From a virus: a DNA stretch of 64,000 nt. Every line of letters begins with the position of its first letter. Position 1 is the first letter of the stretch. Made by a program: the position numbers and the translations under genes. The stretch is from the IMG/VR virus record IMGVR_UViG_3300000101_000010; one strand, 5' to 3'. Positions 8,752 through 54,125 of the stretch are shown here, in pieces. The notes under the pieces were generated by a model that ran no database searches, had not been told where the DNA came from, and worked only from the letters and a program-made list of their open reading frames with translations.

Positions 8752-9492
8752 ATGGCAGACCTGAGAACACTATTAGGCGACACTATTGGAGGATCTTCGG
8801 TTCCTACAAAATTCTTCTACGTCTACAATAACAATAGAGGAATTAACAATGGTGGTTGCTGTTGTAACTGGACAGTACCAACTGGTATTGTTAACGTAAC
8901 GTTTGAGTTATGGGGAGCAGGCGCGGCAGGAGCAGGTGGTTGCTGTTGTCAGTTTAGTTCACAGAACGCAGGTGGCGGGTCATATGCGATTAGATCACAT
9001 TCAGTTGTAGCTGGATGTACATTTACAATTTGTGCGGCAGGTAATGGTGCATGTTGTGAACGTGATTGTTTAGGAATTGACGGATCAACTAGTTTTGTTA
9101 CTGGTTCAAGTATTGCAACAACGTGTGCAAGAGGTGGATGTACAGGAAGAACAAACTGTCATGCACACTATGCATATAACTGTTGCTTTGGTTGTTCAAC
9201 AATAGGTGGTGGAACGCAGGGCGATTTAAGATTAGGTCACAGTAGAGGACAACCACTACAAACGCATTATTGTCACAATCAAATGTGGGATTATGTCCCA
9301 AGTGCACCAAAGAGTAGCAACACAAGAAAAGGACGTGATTACTGCGGTAATCCAATGACTTGTTCAGGTTGCGGATGGGGTTGTGCTCAACCTTACCCAG
9401 GTGATGCTGGATATAATGGTACTGCATGTGGCGGACCGTGCTGTTGGGGCCATTGGGGCTCAGGCGGAATGGTTAAGGTGTCGTACAGTTAA
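8752..9492 (+). CDS. Cys/Gly-rich adhesin-like tail protein 1
   Basis: 25 Cys in 246 aa (manual count); WTVP...FELWGAGAAG glycine-rich domain motif; two CCC triplets; ends GGMVKVSYS. Confidence 0.65.
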   Translation: MADLRTLLGDTIGGSSVPTKFFYVYNNNRGINNGGCCCNWTVPTGIVNVTFELWGAGAAGAGGCCCQFSSQNAGGGSYAIRSHSVVAGCTFTICAAGNGACCERDCLGIDGSTSFVTGSSIATTCARGGCTGRTNCHAHYAYNCCFGCSTIGGGTQGDLRLGHSRGQPLQTHYCHNQMWDYVPSAPKSSNTRKGRDYCGNPMTCSGCGWGCAQPYPGDAGYNGTACGGPCCWGHWGSGGMVKVSYS

Positions 9493-9521: not shown

Positions 9522-10214
9522 ATGGCTGAAATTACAAAAAACTTTACATATGATATCCCCAATGAATATTTGAGTCAATCAAATAGTGATGGGGACACAG
9601 CAACAGCTAGTTATACAGGACCAGAATCATTGTATATCTATGTTGATGCAACAAGCGGAAAAAATACACTATCACAAAATGCTCCAGATGAGGAGTTTAA
9701 CTACAATCCAACTACTGATACAACACCAGAAGGTGAAAGATTAGTTACTTTAGATTGTGCAGGCGAAGATACTTTAATGTGTGCTATCTTTCTTCCACAC
9801 ACAGTAACGATAACGCAAAGTGATGTTGTAACAAATTTACCAGAAGATTACGGAACATACTCCACTAAGTGGCCACCATATCCAGATCATGCTTACGAAA
9901 GAGACTTATGTACTCATGACGCTGATTCGAATAACTGGACACTAACTTGGAAGCAACCGTGGCAAACATGGGAAACATTAACACAATTAAGAAACGATAG
10001 ATTAGATTCAACAGATCATAAAGTATCAGCAGATTCACCTGATAGCGTTAAGAATCCTTGGATTGCATTTAGACAAAAACTTAGAGAATTACCAGTTACG
10101 TACAAGCGTGGCGCGGCAGATGAAATTCCAGCACATATGGTTAAGTTCCCAGAAGAACCAACTGTAGGCGGATATGCTGAAGCACCAGCTGAAGATGGCG
10201 TAGGAATAGGTTAA
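9522..10214 (+). CDS. Tail fibre assembly chaperone (Tfa-like C-terminal domain) 1
   Basis: WETLTQLRNDRLDSTD...WIAFRQKLRELP...FPEEP matches the phage tail-assembly chaperone pattern. Confidence 0.7.
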   Translation: MAEITKNFTYDIPNEYLSQSNSDGDTATASYTGPESLYIYVDATSGKNTLSQNAPDEEFNYNPTTDTTPEGERLVTLDCAGEDTLMCAIFLPHTVTITQSDVVTNLPEDYGTYSTKWPPYPDHAYERDLCTHDADSNNWTLTWKQPWQTWETLTQLRNDRLDSTDHKVSADSPDSVKNPWIAFRQKLRELPVTYKRGAADEIPAHMVKFPEEPTVGGYAEAPAEDGVGIG

Positions 10215-10226
10215 GGAGAACAATAA

Positions 10227-10997
10227 ATGTCTGCATTAAGATCACTATTACAACTTGGAACAGATTCCGGAGCAAAGCCTCTGAGAACGATTTATGTTTA
10301 CCACAGTTCATTTGATAATACTCGTAACAGTAACCCAGGTTGCTGTTGTGCATGGACACCTAGTGCAGATGTAAACTGGGCGGCTTTTGAAACATGGGGA
10401 GCAGGCGGAGACGGTGGCGGAGGCTGTTGTTGTATGTCAGGATTTCCAGGCGGAGCAGGATCGTACGGTAGAAAAATTGCTGAAATTACACCAGGCGCAA
10501 CATTTACATTATGTGCAGGAGCGGCAGGTTGCTGTAGACCAGTAATGGGCTGTACAGGATGTGGTAGTTATGCATGTTCAGGTAACGGTTGTAAATCAGG
10601 AGGCTACTTTTGCTTATGTTCATCAGGTGGTGGATATGGTTGTGCAACTTGTGGTTTTGGTACTGCATGGGGCGGACATTGTGGATGTCCAAACAGAATG
10701 TGTGGTTGTGTAAAAGGCGCAGACTTTAGTATGTGCGGTATGAATGGCGGTGGAGCAGGAACATCTATGTGTTCTAGTTCATCATGGGAAAACATGACAT
10801 CAGCACCATACGGCGGACAAAGTGCTAGAATGTCAAGAGATAATTGTTATAAAACACACGGTAGAGATGCAGATGGTCCAGCTGACTTCCCAGGAGGCGG
10901 CGGCGGAACACTACATACTCACAATGGTACTTGTTACTGCGGTGGTCCAGGAGCTGGTGGATTAGTAGTAGTTTACTATCAATCGGAAGTAGGATAA
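10227..10997 (+). CDS. Cys/Gly-rich adhesin-like tail protein 2
   Basis: 26 Cys in 256 aa; FETWGAGGDGGGGCCC; C-terminal GGPGAGGLVVVYY; paralog of 8752. Confidence 0.65.
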   Translation: MSALRSLLQLGTDSGAKPLRTIYVYHSSFDNTRNSNPGCCCAWTPSADVNWAAFETWGAGGDGGGGCCCMSGFPGGAGSYGRKIAEITPGATFTLCAGAAGCCRPVMGCTGCGSYACSGNGCKSGGYFCLCSSGGGYGCATCGFGTAWGGHCGCPNRMCGCVKGADFSMCGMNGGGAGTSMCSSSSWENMTSAPYGGQSARMSRDNCYKTHGRDADGPADFPGGGGGTLHTHNGTCYCGGPGAGGLVVVYYQSEVG

Positions 10998-11009: not shown

Positions 11010-11816
11010 ATGTCAAATTTAAGAGATTATATTCCAGGATACGATGTAGGTGTTTCAAGTCCAACTGCGTTTACAGTTAGTTACGCTTGGAACTCAGATC
11101 ACAACGAAGCGTGGCCAGCACAAGCATACGGTGTACCACCAGAATCAAGATATTATTGTAACAACAACGGCGGTAAATGTTGTAACTGGACTGTTCCATC
11201 AAGTGCTACTTTTGCAGTATTTGAAATGTGGGGCGGCGGTTCATCAGCTACAGGCGGATGTTGCTGTATGCAAGGTTATCCAGCAGACTCAGGCGGATAT
11301 GCTATTAAATCTACTAACGTAACAGGCGGTGATTCATTCACAATTTGTGCAGGTAGATCAGGATGTTGTTTATATGCAGGTAATAACTATGCAGGACATA
11401 ACAGTTTTGTTATGGGAACTCCAACAGGCGGCTCATGTTTTTGTGCTGTAGCTTGTGGAGGTTACTGTAGTAACTGTACACATTGTCATGGTTTCTTTAG
11501 CTGTTACGGTTGCTGTATGAACTGTTATAACTGTCAAATTCAACCTAATAACGTTGACTTTGGTATTGCAAGTATGACAGGTTCTTCACAAAGATCACAG
11601 CATTGCGGAGATAGAGGATTAGAATTAACACCAACTGCTCCAATGGCACAGTCAGGACCTAAAATGGGACCAAACGGTTGCTGTACAAGAGGCGGCGAGT
11701 GTGGTGGATTTGGTTCATGGCCAGGTGGCGCAGGAGAATCAGGTAGAGCATATGGCGGCGGTTGCTGTTGTGGTTCACCAGGTGCTGAAGGCGCAGTATA
11801 CGTGGTGTATTATTAA
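11010..11816 (+). CDS. Cys/Gly-rich adhesin-like tail protein 3
   Basis: 27 Cys in 268 aa; NWTVP...FEMWGGGSSATGGCCC; C-terminal PGAEGAVYVVYY; paralog of 8752 and 10227. Confidence 0.65.
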   Translation: MSNLRDYIPGYDVGVSSPTAFTVSYAWNSDHNEAWPAQAYGVPPESRYYCNNNGGKCCNWTVPSSATFAVFEMWGGGSSATGGCCCMQGYPADSGGYAIKSTNVTGGDSFTICAGRSGCCLYAGNNYAGHNSFVMGTPTGGSCFCAVACGGYCSNCTHCHGFFSCYGCCMNCYNCQIQPNNVDFGIASMTGSSQRSQHCGDRGLELTPTAPMAQSGPKMGPNGCCTRGGECGGFGSWPGGAGESGRAYGGGCCCGSPGAEGAVYVVYY

Positions 11817-11838: not shown

Positions 11839-13209
11839 ATGATAGATCCAAATGCAACAGATAGAGTAGTAGAAGTAAACGTAGACTTCTCGTATGATAT
11901 GCCAGATGCATATCTGTATCAAACTGCCGACTTAGGTAAAGTGGGTACTTGGACTTATGAAGGTCCTAGAGAGATGTGGGTATTTTTACGTAAAAGAGAT
12001 AACAAGCGTACAGGTGAAGTTAAATTCAGCTACCAAGTTGAAGATGATTTTGTACCTGCGGCAAGTGAATACATGGTTAAAGTTAACTGTGAAGAAAATC
12101 CTTTACTTTGCGAATTAATGGAAACTGATCAAGACACACTATTTTTAGAAGGCAGAGAACAAATAAGTACTACACTTCCAATAAATGATTGGGAAGGTAA
12201 TCCATTTGTACATATTGAGCCTAAAGTTCCGACACCAGATCACACATACGATAGAGATGAAATTGAATACAATCCAACTGCACAAGAATGGGTTACACCT
12301 TTTCCATTTATTAAGCCACACACAGATTGGGAAGCAATTAAAAAAGTACGTTGGTCTAGACTAAACGCTAGTGACGGACACGTATCAGAAGATATGCCAG
12401 CTAGTTTAATTACTGAATGGCAAGATTATAGAATAGCATTAAGAAACTTACCAGCTACATATGGTGCGGCATGGTCAGTAGCTATTGCAACAGCAGGAAC
12501 AGGATATGCAGTAGGCGACAACTTTAACGTTGACGCAAGTGTATTTGGTTTTTCAAGTGCAGATGTAGGTACATTAGACGATTTAAGTCAACCAATGGGT
12601 AAGAGACCCGGATTTGATTTTGAAGCGGCAACTAGTGGACTAGATGATACAGCTCTTGTTAACGAAAATGATTCATTAGATGTAAACATTATTGTTACAG
12701 CAGTTGATTCAGATGGTGCAATTACAGGTGTTAGAACACGTAACGCATTTAATGCAAGACATATTGCAGAAGCACGTACACTTAACGCAGTAGCAACTAC
12801 AGCAACTACAAGCGGTGGTTCAGGTGCAACATTTAATTTAAGTAAAGTAGTTAGAATTGACCCTTGGAAAGTAAGATTTCCACAGAGTCCAAACGCAAAA
12901 CGCCCAGGTGTGTATGGCGAAAGAGATCAATTTCCAGGACAGATTGGCCGTTATTTAAGCGAAGCTGATCGTAACAATCCTGCAGATGGTTGGTTAATGG
13001 AACACACATATCACCCTGCAACGGGACACTTTGTTCCACCAGAAATAGGCGGCAACTATATGGCTTATGATTTAGAAAGATTGAATCTAAGTACAGACGG
13101 TACACCGTACGATGATGGCGTAGCAGACGGGCTTCCAACACCTCCTACAGACTCAAGAGGCAATACACGTATTGCTGGGACTGTAACAGCCAGAAAACAA
13201 TCAAGCTAA
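11839..13209 (+). CDS. Tail fibre assembly chaperone 2 with inserted fibre-like domain
   Basis: N-terminus paralogous to 9522 (FSYDMPDAYL vs FTYDIPNEYL; PDHTYDRD vs PDHAYERD); WEAIKKVR...WQDYRIALRNLP chaperone motif. Confidence 0.65.
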   Translation: MIDPNATDRVVEVNVDFSYDMPDAYLYQTADLGKVGTWTYEGPREMWVFLRKRDNKRTGEVKFSYQVEDDFVPAASEYMVKVNCEENPLLCELMETDQDTLFLEGREQISTTLPINDWEGNPFVHIEPKVPTPDHTYDRDEIEYNPTAQEWVTPFPFIKPHTDWEAIKKVRWSRLNASDGHVSEDMPASLITEWQDYRIALRNLPATYGAAWSVAIATAGTGYAVGDNFNVDASVFGFSSADVGTLDDLSQPMGKRPGFDFEAATSGLDDTALVNENDSLDVNIIVTAVDSDGAITGVRTRNAFNARHIAEARTLNAVATTATTSGGSGATFNLSKVVRIDPWKVRFPQSPNAKRPGVYGERDQFPGQIGRYLSEADRNNPADGWLMEHTYHPATGHFVPPEIGGNYMAYDLERLNLSTDGTPYDDGVADGLPTPPTDSRGNTRIAGTVTARKQSS

Positions 13210-13220
13210 ACTAATCTTCA

Positions 13221-13227
13221 TTAAATA
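13221..13227 (+). promoter_or_regulatory. Late promoter box (TTAAATA) of the GT9 operon
   Basis: NTAAATA in the 58-nt gap before ATG 13268, followed by two TTGTWACAA palindromes. Confidence 0.5.
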
Positions 13228-13267
13228 TTGTTACAAGCAATTACACATATTGTAACAAGGATATAAA

Positions 13268-14263
13268 ATGACAGATAAAAGAAATACAGCTATTTTCATC
13301 AATGGTGGCGCTGGCAGAGTTCTTGCTAGTATTCCGGCACTTGAGAAGTTTGCAGAAGAAAATCCAGACGATAACTTTATCATTGTATGCGAAGGCGGTA
13401 CTGACTTTTATAAAGGTCATCCAGTACTCCATGCAAAGGCATACGATCACTGGCACAAGAATCTTTTCCAAGATAAACTTAAAGATATGAATTTGATTAC
13501 ACCTGAGCCTTACAGAGCTTGGGAATACTACAACCAACAATGTAGTATTGCAGAAGCATACGATATTCAAATTAATAATAAAGGATTACGTAAATTAAGC
13601 AAACCAATTTTAAAACTTTCTAGAGAAGAAATGTTGTTTGGTAAAAAGCTAGTAGACGAAGTTAAAGAAAAAACTAAAAAAGACAAAGTAGTTGTTTTTC
13701 AACCATTTGGTAGAGCAGTACAACATGACAATGGTGTAATTACTGACTGGAGTGGTAGAAGTTTTGAAGCTGAAAATTCAGTTAATATTGTTAAATCACT
13801 TTCTAAAAAATATGCAATGGTACACATGGCAGAGTTTGGTATTGACTTTTCAAAACACGGATGTAAAGAACCTGTAGCAAGTCCTATGGGTGCAGACCTA
13901 AGACATTGGGCAGGAATTATTGCAAATGCAGATTACTTTTTAGGCTGTGATAGTGTAGGGCAACATATTGCACATGCACTAGGTATTAAATGTACAGTAG
14001 TAATAGGATCAACTTTTCCAGTTAATGTTTCGTATCCAGAAGATAAAAACTTTGATATTTTAGACATGGGCGAAGGCGCCAGAGTATATTCACCTATTAG
14101 AGTTACAACAGATGAATATGCAGATAGAGTTAATGACGGTATCATGGCAATGAATGACAAAGTTGAAAGTGTCATTTGTGATTCAGTAACAGCAGGAATT
14201 AGAAATAAGAAAAAAGTTGGTGTAAACTACAATAGTACGACCAAAGAAGCAACTCCTGCTTAA
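13268..14263 (+). CDS. GT9-like (heptosyltransferase-like) glycosyltransferase
   Basis: N-terminal GGAGRVLASIP (cf. GT9 GxxGDxxxxxP), VVFQPFG, and C-terminal IANADYFLGCDSVGQHIAHALG, typical of GT9 GT-B enzymes. Confidence 0.7.
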   Translation: MTDKRNTAIFINGGAGRVLASIPALEKFAEENPDDNFIIVCEGGTDFYKGHPVLHAKAYDHWHKNLFQDKLKDMNLITPEPYRAWEYYNQQCSIAEAYDIQINNKGLRKLSKPILKLSREEMLFGKKLVDEVKEKTKKDKVVVFQPFGRAVQHDNGVITDWSGRSFEAENSVNIVKSLSKKYAMVHMAEFGIDFSKHGCKEPVASPMGADLRHWAGIIANADYFLGCDSVGQHIAHALGIKCTVVIGSTFPVNVSYPEDKNFDILDMGEGARVYSPIRVTTDEYADRVNDGIMAMNDKVESVICDSVTAGIRNKKKVGVNYNSTTKEATPA

Positions 14264-14265
14264 GA

Positions 14266-15102
14266 ATGAAACGCTTATTTGTATTTGGGTGTTCCTATAC
14301 ATCATGGAATTGGCCAACCTACGCAGACATTTATGCACAGCAATTTGACCACTATGAAAATTGGGGTCATGCAGGCTTAGGAAATAGAGCTATTGCTGAA
14401 CGTGTTGCAGAATGCCACGCTACAAATGAATTTGACAAAGACGATACAGTAATAGTACAATGGTCAAGTCATTTACGTTACGATTATCTTAACTTTAAAC
14501 ACACAGAACCTTGGCAAACTAAAGGTAGTATATTCAGTTATCAGAACAAAGAAGTATTTGATGACAAATGGATAGAAACTTTTTATGATGAAAAAGCATT
14601 GTTTTTACACACAATGAATAACATTATACTTACTAAGGGTTTATTAAAAGATACAAATTGTAAGTTTCATTTTACAAGTATTAGTAACTTAGAAACATTA
14701 GGAACAGATATTCCGCATCAAAAAGGACATGGTGAAAATTTAAGAAATACACCTGAACTTGCTGATGCATTTAAAGAGTTTAATCTAGAACAATATAGAT
14801 ACGTACTAGAAGGTCCTGAATGGCTAGAATCATTAGGATTACATGCTTGGAATAGACCAGACTCTAGTTGGTGGTTTGAAGGAAATGGCGAAAAATGGTT
14901 AGAGTTACACCCTAGTCCAGTACAGCATTTAAGTTTTTGCCAATCATATCTAAGCCACAACTTATCAGAACAAACACAAAAAATGATAGATACTGTTATA
15001 GATTGTAAAACTAACGACTACAAAGAAACTATTAAAAATATTACAAATTTGCAATTAGCAAATTGGGATAGAAGTTATAGAGGAATAAAAGATGCCAAGT
15101 AA
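14266..15102 (+). CDS. SGNH/GDSL-like hydrolase or acyltransferase
   Basis: Block-I-like FGCSYT, block-II-like GHAGLGN, DTVIVQWS and a C-terminal ELHPS in place of DxxH. Confidence 0.5.
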   Translation: MKRLFVFGCSYTSWNWPTYADIYAQQFDHYENWGHAGLGNRAIAERVAECHATNEFDKDDTVIVQWSSHLRYDYLNFKHTEPWQTKGSIFSYQNKEVFDDKWIETFYDEKALFLHTMNNIILTKGLLKDTNCKFHFTSISNLETLGTDIPHQKGHGENLRNTPELADAFKEFNLEQYRYVLEGPEWLESLGLHAWNRPDSSWWFEGNGEKWLELHPSPVQHLSFCQSYLSHNLSEQTQKMIDTVIDCKTNDYKETIKNITNLQLANWDRSYRGIKDAK

Positions 15103-16903
15103 AAAATCAGTATGGATCGCTGGAATTGCTAGAGGACATAACGGCGGAGTATGTTTATTAAAAGATGGTGAAATTGTTTTTTCAATTGAAGAAGAACGCC
15201 TAACAAGACAAAAATACGATGGCGGCCCATATGCAAGTATGATTAAGATACTTGAATATACAGACAAGCTAGACTTTTTAGTTGTTGCACATACACAAAA
15301 TTTAGAACAAACTGCTGGCAAAGTAGACTTTAGTGGCGATGATGTTTATACAGGACTTGCACGTAAGCTAGGACTTATTAAACGTGAAGCATACCAAGGA
15401 GGAAATCATCCTCAAGTAATTGACATGTCAAACATACACCACAAGTTACATGCCGCTTGTGCTTTTTATCGTTCAGGATTTGAAGATGCTTGTGCAGTTA
15501 TTGTTGATGGTGCTGGAACATTTATTACATTAGATATCGGCGGAGTTCCTACTACTGTTTGGGAAACAGAAAGTATTTACGATTGCAACTATCCAGATAA
15601 CTTTAAAACATTATACAAACACATTGGTGCTAATGGACCTGTTATGGGTGCATGGATGCCTGAATTTTCAAGTGAAATGTATGACGAAGATAAAGATCAA
15701 ACACACGAATTAGTTATTTCAGAAAATGCTGGCATTGTTAAAGCGTATGAAGCAGTTACAGAGTACTGTGGATTTAGTTTTATTGAAGCAGGTAAAACTA
15801 TGGGATTATTTCCATACGGTAAAGCAGACAGTCCGGCACCTAAAATATTTAGACATGATACAATGACATCACAAGCAGACAGACATGTTATTGTTCCAAC
15901 GTATCCTAATGGTGCTCATGTTAATTACAACATGCACACATACTTAACTAATCATGGCGATGAAGAAAATCAAGATGTAACATATTTAGAAAACAGACGT
16001 AACATGGCTTATCAAATACAAACAGAAAGCCAAACAGAAGTTGCAAATCTAATTCGTAAAGCAGTTGCAATGTCAGGTAAGAATAAAGTAGTTATTAGTG
16101 GCGGATACGGACTTAATTGTGTTGCTAACTATCATTACTTAGAAGAATTAAAAGACGAAGGCATTGAAATTTATGTTGAACCAGTAAGTAACGATGCAGG
16201 TACAGCAATGGGTGGTGCAATGTTAATGCATAGACGTTTAACTAAAAGTAACAAACGTCAAGAACAGCAAGAAACACTATATGAAGGACCAGCTTACAGT
16301 TATACAGATGAAGAAATTAATGCAGTTGTAGAAAAGTATAATGCAACAGTTGAAGATGCAGATAATACTAAAGCTGTAGACTTACTTGCTGATAGAAAGA
16401 TTGTTACATTATTCCAAGGACGTAGTGAAAACGGTCCACGTGCATTAGGTAATAGAACTATTATGTATGATCCAAGTGATCCTAATGGTAAAGATTATGT
16501 AAACAAAGTTAAACGTAGAGAATACTTCCGTCCGTTTGCAGGTAGTATACTAGAAGAAGATGTACATGAATGGTTTGACTTACGTGGAATGAAAAGTTCA
16601 CCAACAATGATGTATGCTGTAAACTGTCAACCTGGTATTGCTGAAAAGATTCCAAGTATTATTCACGTAGATGGCACATGTAGAATTCAAACAGTTAATA
16701 GAGATCAAAACAAACATTACTATGACATTATCAAAGCGTTCAAAGAACGTACTGGTACTAGTATAATTTTCAATACTAGTTTTAACCTAGGTGGCGAACC
16801 GTTAGTTGAAACACTAGATGATGCTGTACGTACACTACGTAATAGTGATATTGAATATCTTTATTTGCCAGAATACAATAAGCTAATTACAGTAAACAAT
16901 TAA
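15092..16903 (+). CDS. O-carbamoyltransferase, NodU/CmcH/TobZ family
   Basis: EEERLTRQK, HHKLHAACAFY, VDGAG, SGGYGLNCVAN, DAGTAMG, GPRALGNR, KRREYFRPFA, HVDGTCRIQTV, NTSFNLGGEP. Confidence 0.93.
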   Translation: MPSKKSVWIAGIARGHNGGVCLLKDGEIVFSIEEERLTRQKYDGGPYASMIKILEYTDKLDFLVVAHTQNLEQTAGKVDFSGDDVYTGLARKLGLIKREAYQGGNHPQVIDMSNIHHKLHAACAFYRSGFEDACAVIVDGAGTFITLDIGGVPTTVWETESIYDCNYPDNFKTLYKHIGANGPVMGAWMPEFSSEMYDEDKDQTHELVISENAGIVKAYEAVTEYCGFSFIEAGKTMGLFPYGKADSPAPKIFRHDTMTSQADRHVIVPTYPNGAHVNYNMHTYLTNHGDEENQDVTYLENRRNMAYQIQTESQTEVANLIRKAVAMSGKNKVVISGGYGLNCVANYHYLEELKDEGIEIYVEPVSNDAGTAMGGAMLMHRRLTKSNKRQEQQETLYEGPAYSYTDEEINAVVEKYNATVEDADNTKAVDLLADRKIVTLFQGRSENGPRALGNRTIMYDPSDPNGKDYVNKVKRREYFRPFAGSILEEDVHEWFDLRGMKSSPTMMYAVNCQPGIAEKIPSIIHVDGTCRIQTVNRDQNKHYYDIIKAFKERTGTSIIFNTSFNLGGEPLVETLDDAVRTLRNSDIEYLYLPEYNKLITVNN

Positions 16904-16907
16904 AGTC

Positions 16908-17537
16908 ATGGAAGATGACTTTATCCAATACTTTGATATAAAGATTCACTGGACCAAAGACACAGACGGCTGTGGCAACACAATGGTTGATGACTTTATT
17001 GATGCAACACAAGCAATAAGCGAAGATAAAAAATTTAACAATGTACTAGAATGGTGTAGTGGACCAGGCTTTTGGGGGTTTGGATTACTTGCAACAGGTA
17101 TAGCAAACAAAGTTACATTGGCAGACATCTATGAGCCAACTCAGCTTCCTGTATTACAAACAATAAAAGAAAATAACTTACAAGATACTGCACAATTTTT
17201 TCTAAGTGACAACTTTACAAATATTCCGCAACAAAAATTTGACCTAATTGTTGCTAATCCACCTCACTTTAACATGGATCCGTATGTAGCACACTATGAC
17301 GATCCAAGGAAATATAAAGATTTAGACTGGTCTATACATAAAAATTTCTTTAACAATGTTAACAATTACCTAACCGACGATGGAATTATTGTACTTGCTG
17401 AAAATGTATGGGGATCAAATCCTGACACATTCCAAGACATGATTACTGATAACAATTTACAAATTACACATCATTTTGTAAGCAAACAATACCCTTTAGA
17501 TATGTGGTATTTAGGTATTACACGCTTACACCACTAG
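16908..17537 (+). CDS. Class I SAM methyltransferase (HemK/PrmC-like NPPx motif)
   Basis: VLEWCSGPG motif I and DLIVANPPHF motif IV. Confidence 0.8.
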   Translation: MEDDFIQYFDIKIHWTKDTDGCGNTMVDDFIDATQAISEDKKFNNVLEWCSGPGFWGFGLLATGIANKVTLADIYEPTQLPVLQTIKENNLQDTAQFFLSDNFTNIPQQKFDLIVANPPHFNMDPYVAHYDDPRKYKDLDWSIHKNFFNNVNNYLTDDGIIVLAENVWGSNPDTFQDMITDNNLQITHHFVSKQYPLDMWYLGITRLHH

Positions 17538-17593: not shown

Positions 17594-19294
17594 ATGAGCT
17601 TCGATATCACCAAATACTTTAGACGCGGACAAAATAGTACGATTGAGTTTCGTAATGGAACCAACTTGTCTTATGCAGGGCCAAGCTATTCGTTAGTAGA
17701 GGCAGGAACAGAATTAGACCGTTGGTACGTTGGTAGTTACTTTGGTGTAGAATACACTATTGCATGTGATGTAAATAGTGAACGCAAAGAAGTAATTAAA
17801 GCAATGGCAACAGCTAGTACTAGTAAAGCAAATATTGTTGTTTATGGACGTAGTAATTTAGGAGATGACCTATTACAATTAGAAGTTGAAGTTACAGATT
17901 CGTACTTTAAACTTATGGCATATCCAAGAGTACAAGATGACTCAACTGCTATTGCAGGAGCAAAAGTAATTTACTCAGCAAACTATTATGCAACACAGAA
18001 CGAACCTACAGCAACACTATTAGGATCAAACGTTGCGGCAAACGCACCAGTTTATACATTAAATCCAAGCACTACAAATACTGGAGAACTTGGACAAACA
18101 GTTACAGTAGAATTAGTTACATCAAATGTACTTGCGGGTACAGTTTTACCTTATACAATTTCAGGTATACAAAGTGCAGATATAGGTGGATTAAATCTTA
18201 CAGGAACATTTATTGTTGGAACAACAGATATTCTTAGTTTCCCTATTACTGTTGACTTAGCAACAGAAGGTCAAGAAGTAATGACAGTTAAACTTGATAA
18301 CAATCAAGCTACTACTAGTATTGTTATCCAAGATACAAGTACAACACCAGCTGTCAGTTACGGACTTACAACTAGTGCGGCAACAGTTGATGAAGGTGGA
18401 ACATTTACTATTACATTAACTTCTGAAAACGTTGCATCTGGCACACTAGTTGGATATACAATTACAGGAGTTGACTCAGCAGACATAGGCGGAGCAGACT
18501 TAACAGGTAACTTTGAGATTGGAACTGTAGAATCAATTGTTTATACTGCAACTGAAGATCTATTAACAGATGGTGCAGAAACATTCCAAATGTCAATTGA
18601 CGGTACAAGTACAATCGTTGAAGTTGCAATAGGCGACACAAGTTTAAGTCCAATTATTCCAAGTTATACATTAGGATCATCTACTAACACAGTTAACGAA
18701 GGCGGAGTATTTACAATTACACTTTCAACATCAAATGTTGAAAATGGTACAGTTTTACCTTATACAATTTCAGGTGTAACAGGTGCAGACATAGGTGGCG
18801 CGGCATTAACAGGAAACTTTGTTGTTGGAACAACGGATAGTATTACACTTACTGCAACAGCTGATGCAACAACAGAAGGCGATGAAGGATTTGTAATTGC
18901 ACTAGACAATGGCGAATCATCTAAGAGTATTGCTATTATTGATACAAGTACAACACCAGGAAACAGTTATACAATAGCAACTTCAAATAGCGGCTCAGCT
19001 TCATATACATTAAACGGCTCAGATAGATTAGGTACAGTAAATGGTGCTAACCAAACAGTAACAATTAATGTTAATGATACAGTTACATTTACTATGAATG
19101 CACCAGGACATCCGTTCTATATTAAAGCACAAAACTCAACAGGTACAGGTAATATTGTAACAAATCCATTAGCAACAGGACAAGGTGCATCATCTTCAGG
19201 ATCAGTAGCTTGGACACCTTCAGCAGTAGGAACTTATCATTATAACTGTCAATTCCATGGAGCAATGCATGGATTAATAGTGGTACAAAGCTAG
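17594..19294 (+). CDS. Virion protein with three Calx-beta-like repeats and a C-terminal cupredoxin-like domain
   Basis: Three ~101-aa repeats (EGG.FTITL...NV..GT..PYTI.G...ADIGG..LTG.F); C-terminus GHPF...YHYNCQFHGAMHG. Confidence 0.7.
   Translation: MSFDITKYFRRGQNSTIEFRNGTNLSYAGPSYSLVEAGTELDRWYVGSYFGVEYTIACDVNSERKEVIKAMATASTSKANIVVYGRSNLGDDLLQLEVEVTDSYFKLMAYPRVQDDSTAIAGAKVIYSANYYATQNEPTATLLGSNVAANAPVYTLNPSTTNTGELGQTVTVELVTSNVLAGTVLPYTISGIQSADIGGLNLTGTFIVGTTDILSFPITVDLATEGQEVMTVKLDNNQATTSIVIQDTSTTPAVSYGLTTSAATVDEGGTFTITLTSENVASGTLVGYTITGVDSADIGGADLTGNFEIGTVESIVYTATEDLLTDGAETFQMSIDGTSTIVEVAIGDTSLSPIIPSYTLGSSTNTVNEGGVFTITLSTSNVENGTVLPYTISGVTGADIGGAALTGNFVVGTTDSITLTATADATTEGDEGFVIALDNGESSKSIAIIDTSTTPGNSYTIATSNSGSASYTLNGSDRLGTVNGANQTVTINVNDTVTFTMNAPGHPFYIKAQNSTGTGNIVTNPLATGQGASSSGSVAWTPSAVGTYHYNCQFHGAMHGLIVVQS
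18137..18775 (+). repeat. Intragenic direct repeat, 30 nt identical (18137-18166 and 18746-18775)
   Basis: ggtacagttttaccttatacaatttcaggt occurs twice, 609 nt apart (two protein repeat units). Confidence 0.85.
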
Positions 19295-19319: not shown

Positions 19320-20348
19320 ATGGCAGTAATTAAATCACCCTTCCAAGCTCAGTATGGCTTTAAAAGCCCGGGTTTCATAGTCGATGACGTAGGTAATGTA
19401 CAACTTCGTACACTTACATATACAGTTACAGAAGATGTTGTAGATACTGCTGGTGACTTTTTATTCCGTCAAGCTGGTAATAGCTTTACTATTGATGGTA
19501 AAACAGATCCAGATGACGAACCTAACTTATTAGCAAACCCAACGTTTGAATTAACTAGGGGAAGTAGTTATGTTTTTAATTTATTTTTAAGAGAATTAAA
19601 TGAAGCCGGTGATATTACTGGTAACATGACATTGAATTTTTATAGCTTTGATGGATCAGTATACCAACCATATACTTCAGGGCTATCACACACATCTTTA
19701 GATGGTACTACAACTGTAACAGGTATTGACGCTCAAAGTAAGTTTGAAGGTAAATTAACTTTTACTGTACCTGATAACACACCAGCATCATTATGGTATG
19801 GTGATGGCGATCAAATACCATTAGTAGAAATTACAGTTATTGATCCACTAGTTAGTGGTATTGGTAACTTTAGTAGAATTACAACAACAGGCAATTTAAC
19901 AGCCCAAGGCGAAAATGCAGTTATTACACTTGCACCTAGTGGAAGTTCAGGAACAGTAGTTATTAATCCAGCAAACGGTGGAACACTTAGTAACATGGAT
20001 ATTACTGCTAATCTATTAACAGTAAATTCAACTTCAAACTTTACAGGTTTAAATGCAGATGTAAATGTAAGCCCAGCAGGCAATGGTAGATTAACTGTTG
20101 CTCCATCGGGTGGCGGTAATATAGACGGTGTAAACATTGGTTTAACTAAGGCGGCTTCGGTTACCACTAATAACTTAACAGCGACCTCAGGAACAATAAA
20201 TAACACTACAATTGGAGCAGTAACTCCGGCTAATGCAACGTTTGCTACAGCACAAGTACAAGCAAAACCAACATCGGCTACGACAGTTACTAACAAAAAA
20301 TATGTGGACAGCAGGGCATCAGCAATGGCTGTTGCTTTCGGAATGTAG
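19320..20348 (+). CDS. Virion structural protein (tail-fibre associated)
   Basis: LTRG..Y.F...LTFTVP..TP..LWY module, Thr/Asn/Gly-rich stalk and NKKYVD fibre motif near the C-terminus. Confidence 0.6.
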   Translation: MAVIKSPFQAQYGFKSPGFIVDDVGNVQLRTLTYTVTEDVVDTAGDFLFRQAGNSFTIDGKTDPDDEPNLLANPTFELTRGSSYVFNLFLRELNEAGDITGNMTLNFYSFDGSVYQPYTSGLSHTSLDGTTTVTGIDAQSKFEGKLTFTVPDNTPASLWYGDGDQIPLVEITVIDPLVSGIGNFSRITTTGNLTAQGENAVITLAPSGSSGTVVINPANGGTLSNMDITANLLTVNSTSNFTGLNADVNVSPAGNGRLTVAPSGGGNIDGVNIGLTKAASVTTNNLTATSGTINNTTIGAVTPANATFATAQVQAKPTSATTVTNKKYVDSRASAMAVAFGM

Positions 20349-26300: not shown

Positions 26301-28072
26301 CAGATACTGCAATGACAGTAACACCTGACTTTAGAGGTAACACTAATGCTACAGGTGCTAAACTATGTTTAATTAGTGATAAGAAAACTAAACAAGATGA
26401 CTTTAACAAAGATACACTAGACGGCTTTGGTAGTAGTGGATATATCATGGACATCAGTAAGATGCAGATGATTGGTATTCAGTACAGTTGGTATGGTGCT
26501 GGTTTTATTGACTATATGCTACGTGGTGATGATGGTAACTTTATTTTCTATCACAGAATGCGTAACTCAAACATTAACACAGAAGCATTTATGCGTACTG
26601 GTAACATGCCTGTGCGTTATGAAGTTACTAACGAAGGACCTAATGACAGACTAGCGGCTGACATGGATGCAACACAAACTACAATTCCGTTAATTACAGC
26701 GGCATTCTTCCCAAGCACTGGTACAGTTATTATTGATAACGAAATGATAGCATACACAGGTGTAACAGGAGATACGTTAACTGGTTGTACTAGAAGTGCG
26801 CCACTAACAAACTTTGCGGCTGGTGCAACAAGAACTTATACAGCAGGTGGTGCAGTAACACACAGTGAACGAACTGGTGTAATTTTAATTAGTAATACAA
26901 TTACTCCAATCATATCACACTGGGGATCAGCGTTCTTAACAGACGGTGGCTTTGATGAAGATCGTGGTTATATTTTCTCATACACATCTGCAGGTAACGA
27001 AATTAGTACAACAAGAAATACTGTGTTTATGTTAAGACTAGCACCAAGTGTGTCTAACGCTATTGTTGGCGACTTAGGTGAAAGAGAACTATTAAACAGA
27101 GCCCAGTTACTACTTGAAGGTATTGAAATTACATCAGATGGATTTGATAGTTCAAATAATCCAATTGGCGGAGGTATTGTTGTTGAAGGTATTTTGAATC
27201 CACAAAACTATCCAGTTAACCCAGGAGACGTTGGTTGGTCAGCACTAACAGGTGCGGCGGCTGGTGGACAACCGAGCTTTGCTCAAGTTGCTCCAGGTGG
27301 TTCTGTTGTATGGTCAACTGGTGCAACACAGATTATTAGAAGTGCAACAGTACAAGGTGCAATGACACAAACTGCTGAATTCTTATATGGTAATAGAAAT
27401 AGTAGATACCAATACTTAACACAGTCACAATGGGAAAGTTTAAATGATGAAGTTTCAACAGGTACAACTGTTACAGCTTCAGGTTCTAACAACTACGCAA
27501 GTAATCCAAGAATTATTGACCAAGTATATATGGAGCCATGGTACAGTAGAGTACGTTTAAGATTTAATCAAAATATTCAAGTACAAAGTGCTGACCCAAC
27601 AGTAACATTTAGTATTGGTGGTGCATTAAGTAATGCCAACTACTTGTTCTTTACAAAAACAACATGGGACGCAACAAATGCTATTGCAGGTGACTTGGTT
27701 GAAGATAGTAAGTTCTCAGCGGGTACTGCGGTATCTAATGTGGAAGAATTGAGCTTTGGTACAACGGACTATTACAGAGTAACATTTACACAGAGTGCTA
27801 ACACTACTGTTAATCCAGGTGATACAGTTGGGTTCTTATTTGGACAACCACCGTATGCACAGCCAGGTGAAACAGTATTTTCATTCATTGCTACACCAGG
27901 ACAATCGAGTGCATTGAGTCTTGAAGCATTGAAAGAACTTACAAATACTACACTAGGTGGTAGAGGAACATATCCAAATGGTCCAGACGTACTAGCAATT
28001 AACGTTTATAAGACGGGTGGTACAGATACTACTGCGAACATCATTCTTAGATGGGGTGAAGCTCAGGCTTAA
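20357..28072 (+). CDS. Giant tail fibre / baseplate protein (2571 aa)
   Basis: YNxxxCxRD modules, about 9 tandem ~90-aa GY..G..I.G..LGG..P.ND.TITI repeats, Thr/Gly/Val-rich composition. Confidence 0.8.
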   Translation: MAKKKIDSYIFQPGIPVSENRFPYAYKLINDNTDFIVDELSAWLTAQVAANTGNPGSIWYNYTYNDVLCRRDTRYNLQGTDGVTGVLWDLRYGGNYQARFLASKYWINSTPQIDGDRAPEIAAKNFVVSLINNYILPQVAYTSLQADPATTTQVYDNGSSYETGTDARITELMGIITTVIAGGLDVIPPLVRSQISSVKIQTRVPANDLLLITDSTNNEILYNFSDPDLGASVAFQTDDTSQLTKGVEEDFPKFLERTGTVTTIFLAKDTDNRVYSPRAVALLEANKSFLQKETVAWIAGKVAASTRQTPSAAAYSPASGKLVLTMAAHGYYRGDYIKIATGGLTFTCGYDNHATEHAYPRASGVPNDVGTDPFYNKPILVESSTTDTVTVNIGISSDTSEHTFVSATTNAISDVWYNYTYNTAKCERDMGLNVEGITHDIKYSGNTKTHFNASKYWVQTTPQIDGDRMPEVLAKHFCRDLINGYIFSNTVYTTAQPVVGRVTQNTILQISELNVSQRVTELFAVITNVIEHGLSVLPIKEEVKQFYDTDDVQIFIDQGDVITRPHDFGTDAIERMRVSNSVSMLDADFEYGLQPTKWQAIAMQRGYPSIYEVPGTDTVVSTVVTDASAGTNGVGQSLITVTTVGPHGIVAGTPITIKALENSVAGASRAEGSFIVSTVPTNSTFTFFAKSKVGSTNGEVLSTYYTQLRQAGFYTGAAIGQPQFTILSQGAAGTWINPLAAETGSSIVTWSGTAPEVGAPVINEGGQVATVGTFGAADASRTGGTYTVSTAFSNSIAADLITGTYSIVVSGTGEVTSITILNPGRNNAAGDILTVVDGSLGAGGGADFTFVVASITQGAGIGSGAQVTSITGGVIGVSDNGGILNTLDVNGDYPIGTNAITLVDATGITQGEAIDRGDGTAIHVTTIVGNTLNFDGNTTGAIVGNTVTYAGITGTNYESAGSGATFNIDRGNPTLGQYTVAMQTSGINFEAGDVLVVDGNTLGGTTGTNDLRITVDTIDVGGVILTYSFTGVAFDGNAVLTNVTGTNINGLGTGLILDVTSSAGTYTAVTDDPTFTDLPPEAGSGGTGATWDVTLTNNIYNPVTKNAGSTDTGYNVGGVIRIPGNVFGGASPTNDLDITISGVDGTGAITSFTESGAGADAVANFAGPSFTTSSIGTGAEVNVAFTGSTYTVNPSAPGSGYAQNETLTILGTELGGTSPTNDATVTIDSVGGSGEITGLSITGTAVNSASFTNITSGYNVQGTGATFNVTQNSNGTYTVSIGSTIGQDYANSSTLTILGNNVGGQSPANDITITITGVDAAGSITSITSAGTSLAPTQGYVVGDRLAIQGDVFPGGTSPLNDALIEVTSVSTGVITGFTITGTGPTANETYPSVAYTYPTGSGSTADFSISKTGSVYGVTITNAGTGYLAGETFVVAGNILGGATPANDATITVATIDVGGEILTATIGGSGNDEVVFQDVKQSANQIQMLQGSTATFDITISNGAYSGVVNTPGTGYFDDHTILVPGTQLGGTTPANDLTITIDTTDDSGTRTDEGSVATISVAGTGPSGVGAYVDVGAQALSNTGTSASFSIQRTGSSYSNPVLEVDGENYQVGNKIKVLGTDLGGASPANDASIVISEVSTDGSIVDTAITGTAVPGDVTVTYATVTMSEPITQSIPSPTLIAFAALATTEVSFASAHGLIPGDAFIVTQNSDDGTNNHTLLEGPFFAQQVPTTTSLRYQCRAPGTITQTGDISATLYPRPDSFFVHRPYDGGVMLGTGGPQHGAQAIRQSKKYIRYQSGKGIMYTTGALFAPSYDLLNVTADDLAAGSFISVTTDDVDHGLQVGGAIRLIGIETPGYNGNYTVASIVSERTFKVISQIAVGSLTPILSTRAQVSLLNWHGATVRSGAFDDQNGIFMEYDGSNFSAVQRTATLQLAGTVAIAVDSNTCTGSGTRFRDQLKAGDRIVVKGMTHVVSQVTSDTAMTVTPDFRGNTNATGAKLCLISDKKTKQDDFNKDTLDGFGSSGYIMDISKMQMIGIQYSWYGAGFIDYMLRGDDGNFIFYHRMRNSNINTEAFMRTGNMPVRYEVTNEGPNDRLAADMDATQTTIPLITAAFFPSTGTVIIDNEMIAYTGVTGDTLTGCTRSAPLTNFAAGATRTYTAGGAVTHSERTGVILISNTITPIISHWGSAFLTDGGFDEDRGYIFSYTSAGNEISTTRNTVFMLRLAPSVSNAIVGDLGERELLNRAQLLLEGIEITSDGFDSSNNPIGGGIVVEGILNPQNYPVNPGDVGWSALTGAAAGGQPSFAQVAPGGSVVWSTGATQIIRSATVQGAMTQTAEFLYGNRNSRYQYLTQSQWESLNDEVSTGTTVTASGSNNYASNPRIIDQVYMEPWYSRVRLRFNQNIQVQSADPTVTFSIGGALSNANYLFFTKTTWDATNAIAGDLVEDSKFSAGTAVSNVEELSFGTTDYYRVTFTQSANTTVNPGDTVGFLFGQPPYAQPGETVFSFIATPGQSSALSLEALKELTNTTLGGRGTYPNGPDVLAINVYKTGGTDTTANIILRWGEAQA

Positions 28073-28644
28073 TACACTACGTTGAAAGCAATAGTAGTGC
28101 GTACAACGTTACTACTACTAGGCATTACTGCATGTTTTAAGTAAGAAGGGAACAATAATAGTTTACCCTTTATAGGTTGAAATTCGTATTCTTGACATCC
28201 ATATTTTGCATCCATCCATTGTGCATATTCGACAAACGGATTAGGATTTCTAAAACATAACCCACCAGCATTTTCATTTGCTCTTACCCAGTATACTCCA
28301 GATATTTGGTTCATACCGTGTTCGTGTTCGTTATGTATGTCTCCCTCGTGATAATCTTGTGTCCACCAATTATATTGATTAGCTTCTTTAAGTTGTTTAA
28401 TATGACATGCTTCTTGAAACTTGTTAACACAGTCTTGTATTTCGCCAAACAGTTCTGGTACATCATTCATTAAATGTACTACTTTGTTAGGTTCAAAATA
28501 ATCTGTACCATGCGGAGCATTGTTGTCGGGTCTTGGTATAAGTTTTAAACGTGGTACTACAAATTGTTCAACGTCATCTGCAATACGATCCGGAACATTA
28601 TGTTCTAGTATAGGAACAGAAAATAGCTCTTTAAAGTCCGACAT
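28069..28644 (-). CDS. 2OG-Fe(II) oxygenase-like protein (TIGR02466-type)
   Basis: W...Y..GD.H..HEH..ISGVYW...LLLFPSYLKHAV...RTTIAFN. Confidence 0.75.
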   Translation of the reverse strand: MSDFKELFSVPILEHNVPDRIADDVEQFVVPRLKLIPRPDNNAPHGTDYFEPNKVVHLMNDVPELFGEIQDCVNKFQEACHIKQLKEANQYNWWTQDYHEGDIHNEHEHGMNQISGVYWVRANENAGGLCFRNPNPFVEYAQWMDAKYGCQEYEFQPIKGKLLLFPSYLKHAVMPSSSNVVRTTIAFNVVY

Positions 28645-29227
28645 AATAATTAAGTTTATTTCCTACTTCTTGTAAAACAGTTTCTCTAGGTTGTATATTA
28701 AACGCAATAGTAATACGAGGATCATCTTGTTTCCAATCACTAGTCATATGTTCAACACCTTTGCTGTTAGTAATAACTAACTGTCCGTTTTTGTTTTCAA
28801 CAGCAATTTCTAATGCTTCTTCACCTATGTTGCGATATATAGTTTGCGATGGTTCACATTGTACACCTAAGTACCCGTGGAAACAATTATCATCATCTCC
28901 GTACTCGTGTCCGTGCCAGGTAAGTGTTGTTCCTTGTTTAGGCCAATAATTTAACCAACCAACAATCCAGTACTCTAGACTTTCATCATGCGGAATGTTG
29001 TTTTTAAATTCGTTTCTAATATCACGTTGTAGTTCAAACATACCAGGCATAATACTTGTAAACAAGTTATAGTATTGACTTACTGCCGTTGGAATTGATG
29101 TGTGTTTAGTATCAATTTCTTGATTAGGAATTGCAATCTCGTCTATAATTTGCTTATAAACAAAATTACAATTATGTTTTAATTGACTTAAATTTAGATC
29201 TAACTTACGCCTGTGTATTGGGATCAT
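28631..29227 (-). CDS. 2OG-Fe(II) oxygenase-like protein
   Basis: WLNYW...WHGH...FHGY...EHMTS...RITIAFNI. Likely start MIPIH at 29227 rather than 29293. Confidence 0.6.
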   Translation of the reverse strand: MIPIHRRKLDLNLSQLKHNCNFVYKQIIDEIAIPNQEIDTKHTSIPTAVSQYYNLFTSIMPGMFELQRDIRNEFKNNIPHDESLEYWIVGWLNYWPKQGTTLTWHGHEYGDDDNCFHGYLGVQCEPSQTIYRNIGEEALEIAVENKNGQLVITNSKGVEHMTSDWKQDDPRITIAFNIQPRETVLQEVGNKLNYYVGL

Positions 29228-29618
29228 TAACAATCTCTTGTTGTGGTGGTGGTGGTTGACTATCACCTGGAGCAATACGATAATTATCTTCAATAGAGTC
29301 AGGAGTGCTTACTTCAGTAATACTACTACCGGCTTCTAATGCTTCTAATTGATGCGGCATTAATGGAGGATTTCTCCATGTATCGCCAGAGTTTAAAACT
29401 CTTTCCATTACTAATGCAGTTGATGTATCAATATATCGTAACTTAAATGAACCTGAGTTTACAAACCATGATTCGTCTTTTTCTTTATGAAAGTGCATAC
29501 TAAACTTAGCACCAACTCTATCAAATACCATAATCTTACCACAGTATTGATCGTTAGTGGCCCAAATTAATTCATATCCCCAACCTTTGTCTACTTTACC
29601 ACTATGTCTTGCTGGCAT
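29205..29618 (-). CDS. Cupin, sugar isomerase/epimerase-like
   Basis: KGWGYELIW...FSMHFHKEKDESW...PPLMPHQLEA cupin metal motif. Confidence 0.75.
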   Translation of the reverse strand: MPARHSGKVDKGWGYELIWATNDQYCGKIMVFDRVGAKFSMHFHKEKDESWFVNSGSFKLRYIDTSTALVMERVLNSGDTWRNPPLMPHQLEALEAGSSITEVSTPDSIEDNYRIAPGDSQPPPPQQEIVNDPNTQA

Positions 29619-35436: not shown

Positions 35437-35462
35437 AGTTTTATTTTATGAGGAGTCAGACT

Positions 35463-52765: not shown

Positions 52766-52766
52766 C

Positions 52767-54124: not shown

Positions 54125-54125
54125 T

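Follow-up and report, generated by a model that had tools for sequence, protein, structure and literature searches.

A putative late cyanomyovirus operon predicted to build a tailored carbamoyl-heptose beside cysteine-dense fibre-tip genes

A core pair of genes for a GT9-like protein and a NodU-type carbamoyltransferase, accompanied by heptose genes, has been present in published cyanophage genomes since 2005 as unexplained 'LPS genes' (PMC3037559). The cassette, T4-GC302-308, is carried by P-SSM2 (PSSM2_307-313), S-SSM7 (SSSM7_120-133), S-CAM1, S-CAM3 and P-SSM5 (Sullivan et al. 2005/2010, PMC3037559). A precedent for the chemistry is the Pseudomonas lipopolysaccharide (LPS) core, which contains 7-O-carbamoyl heptose, attributed to WapO (PA5005) (PMC8005017); the LPS of marine Synechococcus, by comparison, is without heptose and Kdo (PMC4515613). 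These cyanophage genes have been filed as LPS genes for twenty years despite the heptose-free LPS of their hosts. Here we describe an elaborated form of the cassette in a 64,000-nucleotide stretch of viral DNA, IMG/VR record IMGVR_UViG_3300000101_000010 (the window, hereafter), where the pair is joined by genes for an SGNH-fold protein and a methyltransferase. We propose, as a reading that comes near to but does not reach an even chance, that the four genes form a late glycan-tailoring operon of a T4-like cyanomyovirus, which puts a decorated heptose on host-recognition proteins. What the window adds is this SGNH and methyltransferase variant of the cassette, an Arg-for-Asp feature of the GT9-like protein, a whole-genome result on cysteine density, a statistical link between the carbamoyltransferase and Cys-dense proteins, and counter-examples that limit the claim.

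The four genes occupy positions 13268-17537 of the plus strand, with a chaperone gene upstream and fibre genes downstream. Gene 1 (13268..14263, 331 residues) encodes the GT9-fold heptosyltransferase-like enzyme, an orthologue of T4-GC302 (phrog_8954) with the motifs GGxGR, PEPY, QPxG, RS and CDSxGxH; gene 2 (14266..15102, 278 residues) encodes an SGNH/GDSL-fold protein and candidate sugar O-acyl esterase or transferase; gene 3 (15092..16903, 603 residues) encodes the NodU/TobZ-type O-carbamoyltransferase, orthologous to T4-GC303 (phrog_1601); and gene 4 (16908..17537, 209 residues) encodes a small HemK-like S-adenosylmethionine-dependent methyltransferase with an NPPH motif, orthologous to T4-GC183. 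An earlier note on this DNA, made from its letters and open reading frames, had described four tightly coupled enzyme genes between adhesin and fibre genes, and had called them GT9-like, SGNH-like, NodU carbamoyltransferase and NPPx methyltransferase; the arrangement is borne out, and all four calls agree with folds, Pfam scores and motifs. A gap of 2 nt separates genes 1 and 2, genes 2 and 3 overlap by 11 nt, and 4 nt lie between genes 3 and 4. A late-promoter-like box (ATTAAATA, 13220..13227, plus strand), which would act as the promoter, stands 46 nt upstream of gene 1, no late-type box was found upstream of genes 2, 3 or 4, and the fibre gene directly after the operon has its own box (GGTAAATA). 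Across the window, 16 of the 33 plus-strand TAAATA sites lie at most 70 nt upstream of gene starts, mostly those of structural genes. Together, the single box at gene 1, its absence before genes 2-4, the separate box of the fibre gene and the distribution of TAAATA sites suggest that the four genes are read as one late operon. The stretch from the late box to the ribosome-binding site of gene 1 contains a perfect 9-bp inverted repeat (TTGTTACAA ... TTGTAACAA) at 13228-13258; considered as a notable element, this hairpin was rejected, as its fold is only marginal (-7.3 kcal/mol, z = -1.9).

The GT9 assignment of gene 1 draws on structure prediction and on its family. The AlphaFold model (predicted local distance difference test, pLDDT, 94.8) has exclusively GT9 proteins as its best structural matches (3TOV, Z 24.1; WaaF, 21.3; TibC, 19.8; WaaC, 19.5), with other GT-B families at Z 12.1 or less, and the top 10 Foldseek matches are likewise all GT9. 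Searched as a single sequence against Pfam, NCBIfam and the PDB, gene 1 gave nothing significant, only faint GT9 matches at residues 210-253; its score against PF01075 was 12.6 bits (E = 0.086), below the 22-bit gathering cut-off. Among 65 diverse members of its family, 25 match Pfam Glyco_transf_9 (PF01075) at E <= 0.01 (best 2.4e-8), and a family profile run against the PDB returned WaaF and WaaC as its sole matches. The donor-site motif D228-S229-V-G-Q-H233 aligns with D261...H266 of WaaC and with WaaF; D228 and H233 are invariant in the family and S229 nearly so, the motif D-S-x-G-x-H is kept in Vibrio and Aeromonas phage homologues, and R164/S165 and the PEPY motif are invariant or nearly so throughout. 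These data verify gene 1 as a GT9-fold heptosyltransferase-like protein of an Arg-bearing, mostly viral clade, for which ADP-heptose would be the donor. In metagenomes the family is abundant, falling into 3024 clusters when grouped at 90% identity and into 429 when grouped at 50%. Among 185,579 prokaryotic genomes only 3 matches were detected, all on short contigs of metagenome-assembled genomes, in a scan that rests on one peptide pattern, so that absence from prokaryotes is not demonstrated; the two of these contigs that were examined bear phage fibre, chaperone or carbamoyltransferase genes. The family thus appears to be essentially viral.

The WaaC residue Asp13 was reportedly identified as catalytic by Grizot and colleagues in 2006. 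Its equivalent in gene 1 is Arg17, within the GGxGR signature, a register set by a P-A-L motif together with the structural alignment, which pairs model residue 5 with WaaC residue 1. Arg is found here in 62 of 65 relatives, and also in the Vibrio and Aeromonas phage homologues. The protein therefore has the GT9 fold without being a canonical GT9 enzyme, its catalytic mechanism and activity are at most predicted, and the Arg-for-Asp clade is enzymologically new. Loss of the canonical Asp is also what one would expect of a non-catalytic protein, and on such an account gene 1 would encode an assembly or structural factor of the fibres, with the products of genes 2-4 directed at something unrelated, be it a small molecule or a nucleotide sugar. 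The GT9-fold subunits of the chloroplast NDH complex (7WFF, 9GRX), which we take to be non-enzymatic, are close matches to the model (Z about 19), and the gene comes after a fibre chaperone or fibre gene, as might suit a fibre factor. We nevertheless regard a non-catalytic role as very improbable, because the donor site is conserved (D228, S229 and H233, along with R164/S165 and PEPY, hold family-wide) and because a dedicated ADP-heptose pathway accompanies the gene in phages of heptose-free hosts; its near-invariable coupling to the carbamoyltransferase, detailed below, argues in the same direction.

The other three genes supply what would be the tailoring enzymes. Gene 3 is verified from its sequence features as a complete NodU/TobZ-type carbamoyltransferase: it scores 81 bits against PF02543 and 195 bits against PF16861, both above the cut-offs, has the Kae1-like N-terminal and YrdC-like C-terminal domains, and retains the motifs HHKLH (116), DGAG (139), NDAG (367) and FRPFA (479). 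Its PDB relatives include 7XB6, NovN, GdmN and TobZ. No paper was found in the literature on structures 7XB6, 8HIU and 9L4Q, and these solved relatives add nothing on the function of gene 3 or gene 4. Gene 2 had no sequence matches in Pfam, NCBIfam or the PDB sequences, and a profile of its family run against the PDB sequences returned chance matches only (e.g. GajA and Arc), which were discarded. Its model (pLDDT 92.5), however, matches only SGNH/GDSL hydrolases, at Z 11-12 (TesA, Z 11.9 over 162 residues), and the 50 best structural matches are all GDSL/SGNH-family proteins except for two designed scaffolds. Within 50 homologues, G8-C9-S10, with the Ser of block I, and H215, the His of block V, never vary, and N40, the Asn of block III, shows conservation of at least 90%. 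The family departs from the textbook blocks in having GCS instead of GDS, and a consensus of W-x-E-x-H-P-S, in which a Glu lies two residues before the His, as against the Asp three residues before it in D-x-x-H. Homologues were absent from 50,697 deposited phage genomes, and 233 relatives occur in metagenomes. This orphan SGNH family is also enzymologically new, and the modelled fold makes gene 2 a candidate sugar O-acyl esterase or transferase.

Gene 4 scores 34.1 bits against PF05175 (cut-off 23 bits), with GPG at residue 52 and NPPH at residues 117-120. It falls below every NCBIfam equivalog cut-off (PrmB, PrmC) and is therefore not a PrmB or PrmC orthologue; 9L4Q is its sole clear solved relative. 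Homologues were found in just eight deposited phage records, all of which also have the GT9-like/carbamoyltransferase/heptose genes, and in S-SSM7 the orthologue is located within the heptose cluster. NPPx enzymes, such as those of the HemK and N6-adenine methyltransferase families, use planar nitrogens of amides or amines as methyl acceptors, which by analogy makes N-methylation of the carbamate an attractive guess. A methyltransferase adjoining the carbamoyltransferase of HTVC008M was considered as a relative and proved unrelated to gene 4.

The window also encodes a route to the putative donor. Genes for HldE, the heptose-7-phosphate kinase/heptose-1-phosphate adenylyltransferase (30417-31562), and HldD, the ADP-glyceromanno-heptose 6-epimerase (29602-30420), lie on the minus strand, 12 kb downstream of the operon and opposite to it; in close relatives HldE is ~16 kb from the GT9-like gene. 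The association is tighter in P-SSM2, S-SSM7 and S-CAM1, where genes for a heptose kinase/adenylyltransferase, a phosphoheptose isomerase and an epimerase come immediately after the T4-GC302/303 pair, with fibre genes next in line. Moreover, a lineage whose GT9-like protein is 33% identical has genes for a fibre chaperone, the GT9-like protein, the carbamoyltransferase, a HAD phosphatase and an epimerase in that order. The suggestion in the earlier note that the sugar is a heptose is strengthened by the HldE and HldD of the window and by the heptose genes that abut the orthologous pair in relatives. Because marine Synechococcus LPS has no heptose or Kdo, the phage would bring its own donor pathway, and the canonical GT9 acceptor would be absent from the host. 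Neither a GmhA nor a GmhB gene turned up in the window or on three contigs of close relatives. On the minus strand at 28069-29618, directly downstream of hldD/hldE and in the same orientation, are a 2-oxoglutarate (2OG)-Fe(II) oxygenase gene (PF13759), an open reading frame of 220 codons without a family match, and a gene for a small cupin; since GmhA and GmhB were not detected, these may replace the heptose steps concerned or tailor the heptose. A second glycan cluster, at 51953-57721 beside packaging/structural genes, comprises a cytidylyltransferase-cupin (mannose-6-phosphate-isomerase-type) fusion, a TylF-type O-methyltransferase, a GT8 gene and four open reading frames without a Pfam match, from which a glycan larger than a single heptose may be built.

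A heptose pathway in a phage could instead be turned on the host, and remodelling of the host envelope has been the default reading in the literature, in which 'LPS genes' modify the cell surface (PMC3037559; PMC12801897). On the cytoplasmic side of the membrane, the carbamoyl-heptose would here be added to a lipid-linked glycan of the host, either the LPS core or some other glycolipid, so masking the phage's own receptor against superinfection or keeping progeny from adhering to debris. All characterized GT9 enzymes other than the autotransporter heptosyltransferases have LPS cores as their targets, the top structural matches of gene 1 include WaaF and WaaC, and carbamoyl-heptose is known solely from LPS core. 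The second glycan cluster, with its GT8, TylF O-methyltransferase and cytidylyltransferase-cupin genes, and a divergent GT9-like relative located in a multi-enzyme glycan cluster would also fit this account. In T5, llp adjoins pb5, a precedent for a receptor-masking gene riding beside a receptor-binding gene, and cyanophage latent periods are long enough for the surface to change. Against this, the canonical acceptor is absent from the heptose- and Kdo-free LPS of marine Synechococcus, the genes appear to be late and co-transcribed with fibres, no flippase, exporter or membrane-anchoring gene was found nearby, and the Asp that in WaaC deprotonates the sugar acceptor is replaced by Arg; co-occurrence with Cys-dense fibre proteins would, moreover, be left unexplained. 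We consider envelope remodelling unlikely, though deserving of weight.

That co-occurrence is among the reasons to look to the virion. Conservation was counted over the 63 related viral loci that have 6 kb or more of downstream sequence. The carbamoyltransferase gene lies next to the GT9-like gene in 62 of them, the SGNH gene is present in 52 (duplicated in 10) and the methyltransferase gene in 10, in the same order, and 50 have the same fibre gene after the operon. With the carbamoyltransferase at 62 of 63 loci and the order unchanged, the arrangement is not due to chance. A carbamoylated and further tailored heptose is a well-supported prediction, given this coupling, the HldE and HldD of the window and the linkage to heptose genes in relatives. 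Upstream of the operon are three plus-strand genes for fibre-tip proteins (8752-9492, 10227-10997 and 11010-11816), the Cys-rich cassette of the earlier note, confirmed here as three adhesins of 10% cysteine that are also high in glycine. They are candidate acceptors, and are interleaved with a gene for an adhesin chaperone (9522-10214, plus strand). In cysteine density they exceed all other proteins of the window, reaching 14-18 Cys per 100 residues where the median is 2. A tblastn search with the Cys/Gly-rich adhesin gave no match, probably through low-complexity masking, and the chaperone was used as query in its place; its family occurs in cultured cyanophages only where the GT9-like gene is present (15/15 records).

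The association extends to more distant clusters. A Cys-dense protein is encoded within 5 genes in seven of eight divergent GT9-like clusters with a carbamoyltransferase, compared with one of nine without (Fisher p = 0.003, a value that overstates independence because the 17 clusters are related to each other). It was also supposed that the Vibrio and Aeromonas phage homologues lack Cys-rich neighbours, and this was rejected, as the opposite was found. The complete genomes of Vibrio phage SBP1, an N4-like podovirus, and Aeromonas phage HJ05, a myovirus, each have a lone GT9-like homologue among fibre genes, and the fibre/tail-tip gene that touches it (L087:8724-11501 in SBP1; L086:6309-7988 in HJ05) encodes the most Cys-dense annotated protein of the genome, with stretches of 11-13 Cys per 100 residues. 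The earlier note had proposed a post-translational line acting on the neighbouring adhesins or fibres: the comparative link that this implies stands, in the chaperone records, the divergent clusters and the SBP1 and HJ05 genomes, while the protein acceptor itself is putative.

The proposed mechanism would run as follows. The HldE and HldD of the phage would make ADP-heptose from precursors derived from sedoheptulose-7-phosphate, and the GT9-fold enzyme would move the heptose onto an acceptor. The NodU/TobZ-type enzyme would then O-carbamoylate the sugar with carbamoyl phosphate and ATP, in a chemistry akin to that of the 7-O-carbamoyl heptose in the LPS core of Pseudomonas, and the SGNH-fold enzyme would put on or take off an O-acyl group. 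In this sub-lineage the NPPH methyltransferase would add a methyl group, possibly to the carbamoyl nitrogen or to an amide or amine of protein or nucleic acid. The acceptor would be at least one Cys-dense fibre-tip protein encoded just upstream, or else the neighbouring fibres, so that the decorated heptose comes to lie on the recognition surface of the virion. The analysis establishes the folds and families of the four proteins, how the operon is built and conserved, and that it is linked to heptose genes and to Cys-dense fibre proteins. What we infer is which donor is used, in what order the steps run, on what substrate each enzyme acts and, most of all, which acceptor receives the sugar; judged from gene context, a fibre-tip protein is the most likely candidate for the last of these. 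Attachment of the heptose to Cys thiols is pure conjecture, although losing the general-base Asp would be in keeping with a sulfur linkage. A bolder and correspondingly more doubtful version, which we entertain as possible, is that marine phages have a widespread system for glycosylating their own fibre tips, in which the Arg-bearing GT9 clade heptosylates Cys-dense receptor-binding proteins, perhaps via sulfur, with NodU-type carbamoylation to follow.

Several observations weigh against decoration of the virion. A glycosylated cyanophage virion protein is not reported in the literature searched, where host-surface or DNA roles are speculated instead. GmhA and GmhB, as noted above, were not found, and the Arg at the Asp13 position leaves the catalytic mechanism, and even the activity, of gene 1 unproven. 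The 17 GT9-like clusters are not phylogenetically independent, and the linkage may reflect the shared ancestry of a mobile host-range cassette, as opposed to a relation of enzyme and substrate. Two divergent GT9-like relatives without a carbamoyltransferase are found away from fibres, one in a glycan cluster (with sulfotransferase, FkbM methyltransferase, GT2 and HldE genes) and another in an nrdA / 2OG-oxygenase / nrdB / ThyX island; the supposition that the family is always fibre-linked was accordingly rejected, and the GT9-like family as a whole is not tied to fibres. Finally, the P-SSM2 orthologue of gene 4 (T4-GC183, L091:6971-7615) lies between gp41 and MazG in a DNA-replication island, which makes the substrate of gene 4 ambiguous. 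A second P-SSM2 carbamoyltransferase (T4-GC173, L092:7765-9480) is found inside the same DNA-replication module, the surroundings of the two comprising gp43 (DNA polymerase), gp41, a 2OG oxygenase and MazG. T4-GC173 and T4-GC183 look like a separate, possibly nucleic-acid-directed, carbamoyl/methyl system.

A further rival reading is DNA hypermodification, in which the GT9-like enzyme would heptosylate a hydroxylated or hydroxymethylated base, with the carbamoyltransferase and NPPH methyltransferase acting on the DNA-linked sugar or on bases, and so guard the genome against host nucleases. The chemistry has precedents: phage carbamoyltransferases that make 5-carbamoyloxymethylcytosine exist (PMC8670742), and a phage gene cluster from metagenomes has allowed heptose-bearing 5-hydroxymethylcytosine (5hmC) to be reconstituted (bioRxiv 2023.12.21.572611). 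Besides the P-SSM2 gene 4 orthologue, whose place in the replication module puts it close to MazG, a 2OG oxygenase and a second carbamoyltransferase, the GT9-like relative of the nrd island and the 2OG oxygenases that flank the heptose genes of the window are consistent with this proposal. In that island (L110:5780-12323), a GT9-like gene with the GGxGR signature lies between a 2OG-Fe(II) oxygenase gene and nrdB, with nrdA and ThyX upstream, a context that would suit hydroxylation of a DNA base followed by glycosylation. The known DNA carbamoyltransferases, however, are accompanied by homologues of thymidylate synthase, by dCMP deaminase and by MazG-like genes (PMC8670742), none of which is beside the operon, and PF00303 and Tet_JBP were unmatched in three related contigs (117-268 kb, 32-75% complete), the Tet_JBP control being uninformative. 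The metagenomic work describes DNA glycosyltransferases that resemble the GT-B enzyme T4 beta-GT or are of GT-A type, none of them belonging to GT9 (bioRxiv 2023.12.21.572611). Beta-GT is not among the 50 best structural matches of gene 1. To our knowledge, DNA glycosyltransferases in general are likewise beta-GT-like GT-B or GT-A enzymes and not GT9. Gene 3 is closer to the fibre-linked P-SSM2 paralogue (46% identity) than to the one in the replication island (35%), and the operon is, judged by its promoter-like box, late and lies within fibre genes. We therefore hold DNA hypermodification of the window's phage to be improbable. Bearing on the same subject, a dNMP kinase homologue (PF21448, T4 gp1-like) is encoded at 35448-36056 beside neck genes; the dNMP kinase of T4 serves the hydroxymethyl-dCMP pathway.

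The wider setting of the operon is that of a large, uncultured T4-like cyanomyovirus of marine origin. The window encodes homologues of gp13, gp14 and gp15 together with large fibre genes, its best protein matches are to Synechococcus and Prochlorococcus phages, and its relatives place the phage in the Kyanoviridae. Directly upstream of the operon is a gene for a tail-fibre assembly chaperone-like protein (11839..13209, plus strand), with matches to PF16778 (Phage_tail_APC) and phrog_9740, and the adjacency of chaperone and operon is repeated at a related locus (L088). Downstream on the same strand are genes for two fibre-like proteins, one of 566 residues directly after the operon (17594-19294), which matches tail-fibre PHROGs, and a second of 342 residues (19320-20348). 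No near-identical DNA was found among deposited phages; the nearest record is an IMG/VR fragment that encodes a carbamoyltransferase identical to that of the window. A relative of gene 1 at 95% identity lies on a 267,783-bp IMG/VR contig (L010), which CheckV rates 75% complete, so the phage is probably very large and the lineage may consist of jumbo-sized T4-like cyanophages.

Were decoration of the fibre tips correct, the main viruses of marine picocyanobacteria would rely for adsorption and host range on a post-translational sugar code that is invisible to sequence-based host prediction. On the bolder version, the decoration would tune host recognition or shield the tips; phages of Gram-negative-type hosts would gain their first virion glycosylation system, and carbamoyl-heptose would for the first time be known on a protein. 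The question is directly testable, since cultured carriers (S-CAM1, S-SSM7 and P-SSM2) exist.

Set beside known systems, the operon combines features of several. It shares with WaaC/WaaF and WapO the GT-B fold (Z 19-21), the donor motif D-(S/T)-G-x-x-H and the pairing of a heptosyltransferase with a NodU-type carbamoyltransferase, and differs from WaaC/WaaF in its Arg at Asp13, its PF01075 score below the cut-off, its almost exclusively viral family and a host LPS that offers no Kdo/heptose acceptor. Like the bacterial autotransporter heptosyltransferases (BAHTs) TibC and AAH, which serve the adhesins TibA and AIDA-I, gene 1 is a GT9-related enzyme (Z 19.8 to TibC) encoded beside a would-be heptosylated adhesin. 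Residues 1-315 of its model align to TibC 90-391, and because nothing matches TibC residues 1-89, the iron-finger/dodecamer part is absent; TibC, moreover, uses an Asp base, and the candidate substrates here are phage fibre tips and not autotransporters. Virion glycosylation itself has a counterpart in mycobacteriophages, whose glycosyltransferases, encoded beside structural genes, reportedly decorate capsid and tail-tube proteins, as described by Freeman and colleagues in 2023. Their enzyme families, sugars and hosts all differ from those considered here, and we know of no carbamoylation in that system. The phage 5hmC carbamoyltransferase identified by MetaGPA (PMC8670742) belongs to the same phage-encoded NodU/TobZ family as gene 3, with the difference that it is linked to thymidylate-synthase-like, dCMP deaminase and MazG-like genes, whereas gene 3 is linked to the GT9-like and heptose genes. 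Also close is T4-GC302-308. Unlike it, the window has the SGNH gene between both enzymes and the methyltransferase gene after the carbamoyltransferase, its heptose genes do not directly follow the pair but lie on the minus strand at a distance of 12 kb, and its gene 1 product lacks the low-complexity C-terminal tail of the cultured GC302 proteins. The core, however, is held in common: the GT9-like proteins (45-63% identity) and carbamoyltransferases (46-63%) are orthologous, the heptose pathway genes are the same, and the pair occupies the same position, in that a fibre gene, two small connector genes and genes for Cys-rich proteins and a chaperone precede it, with more fibre genes behind.

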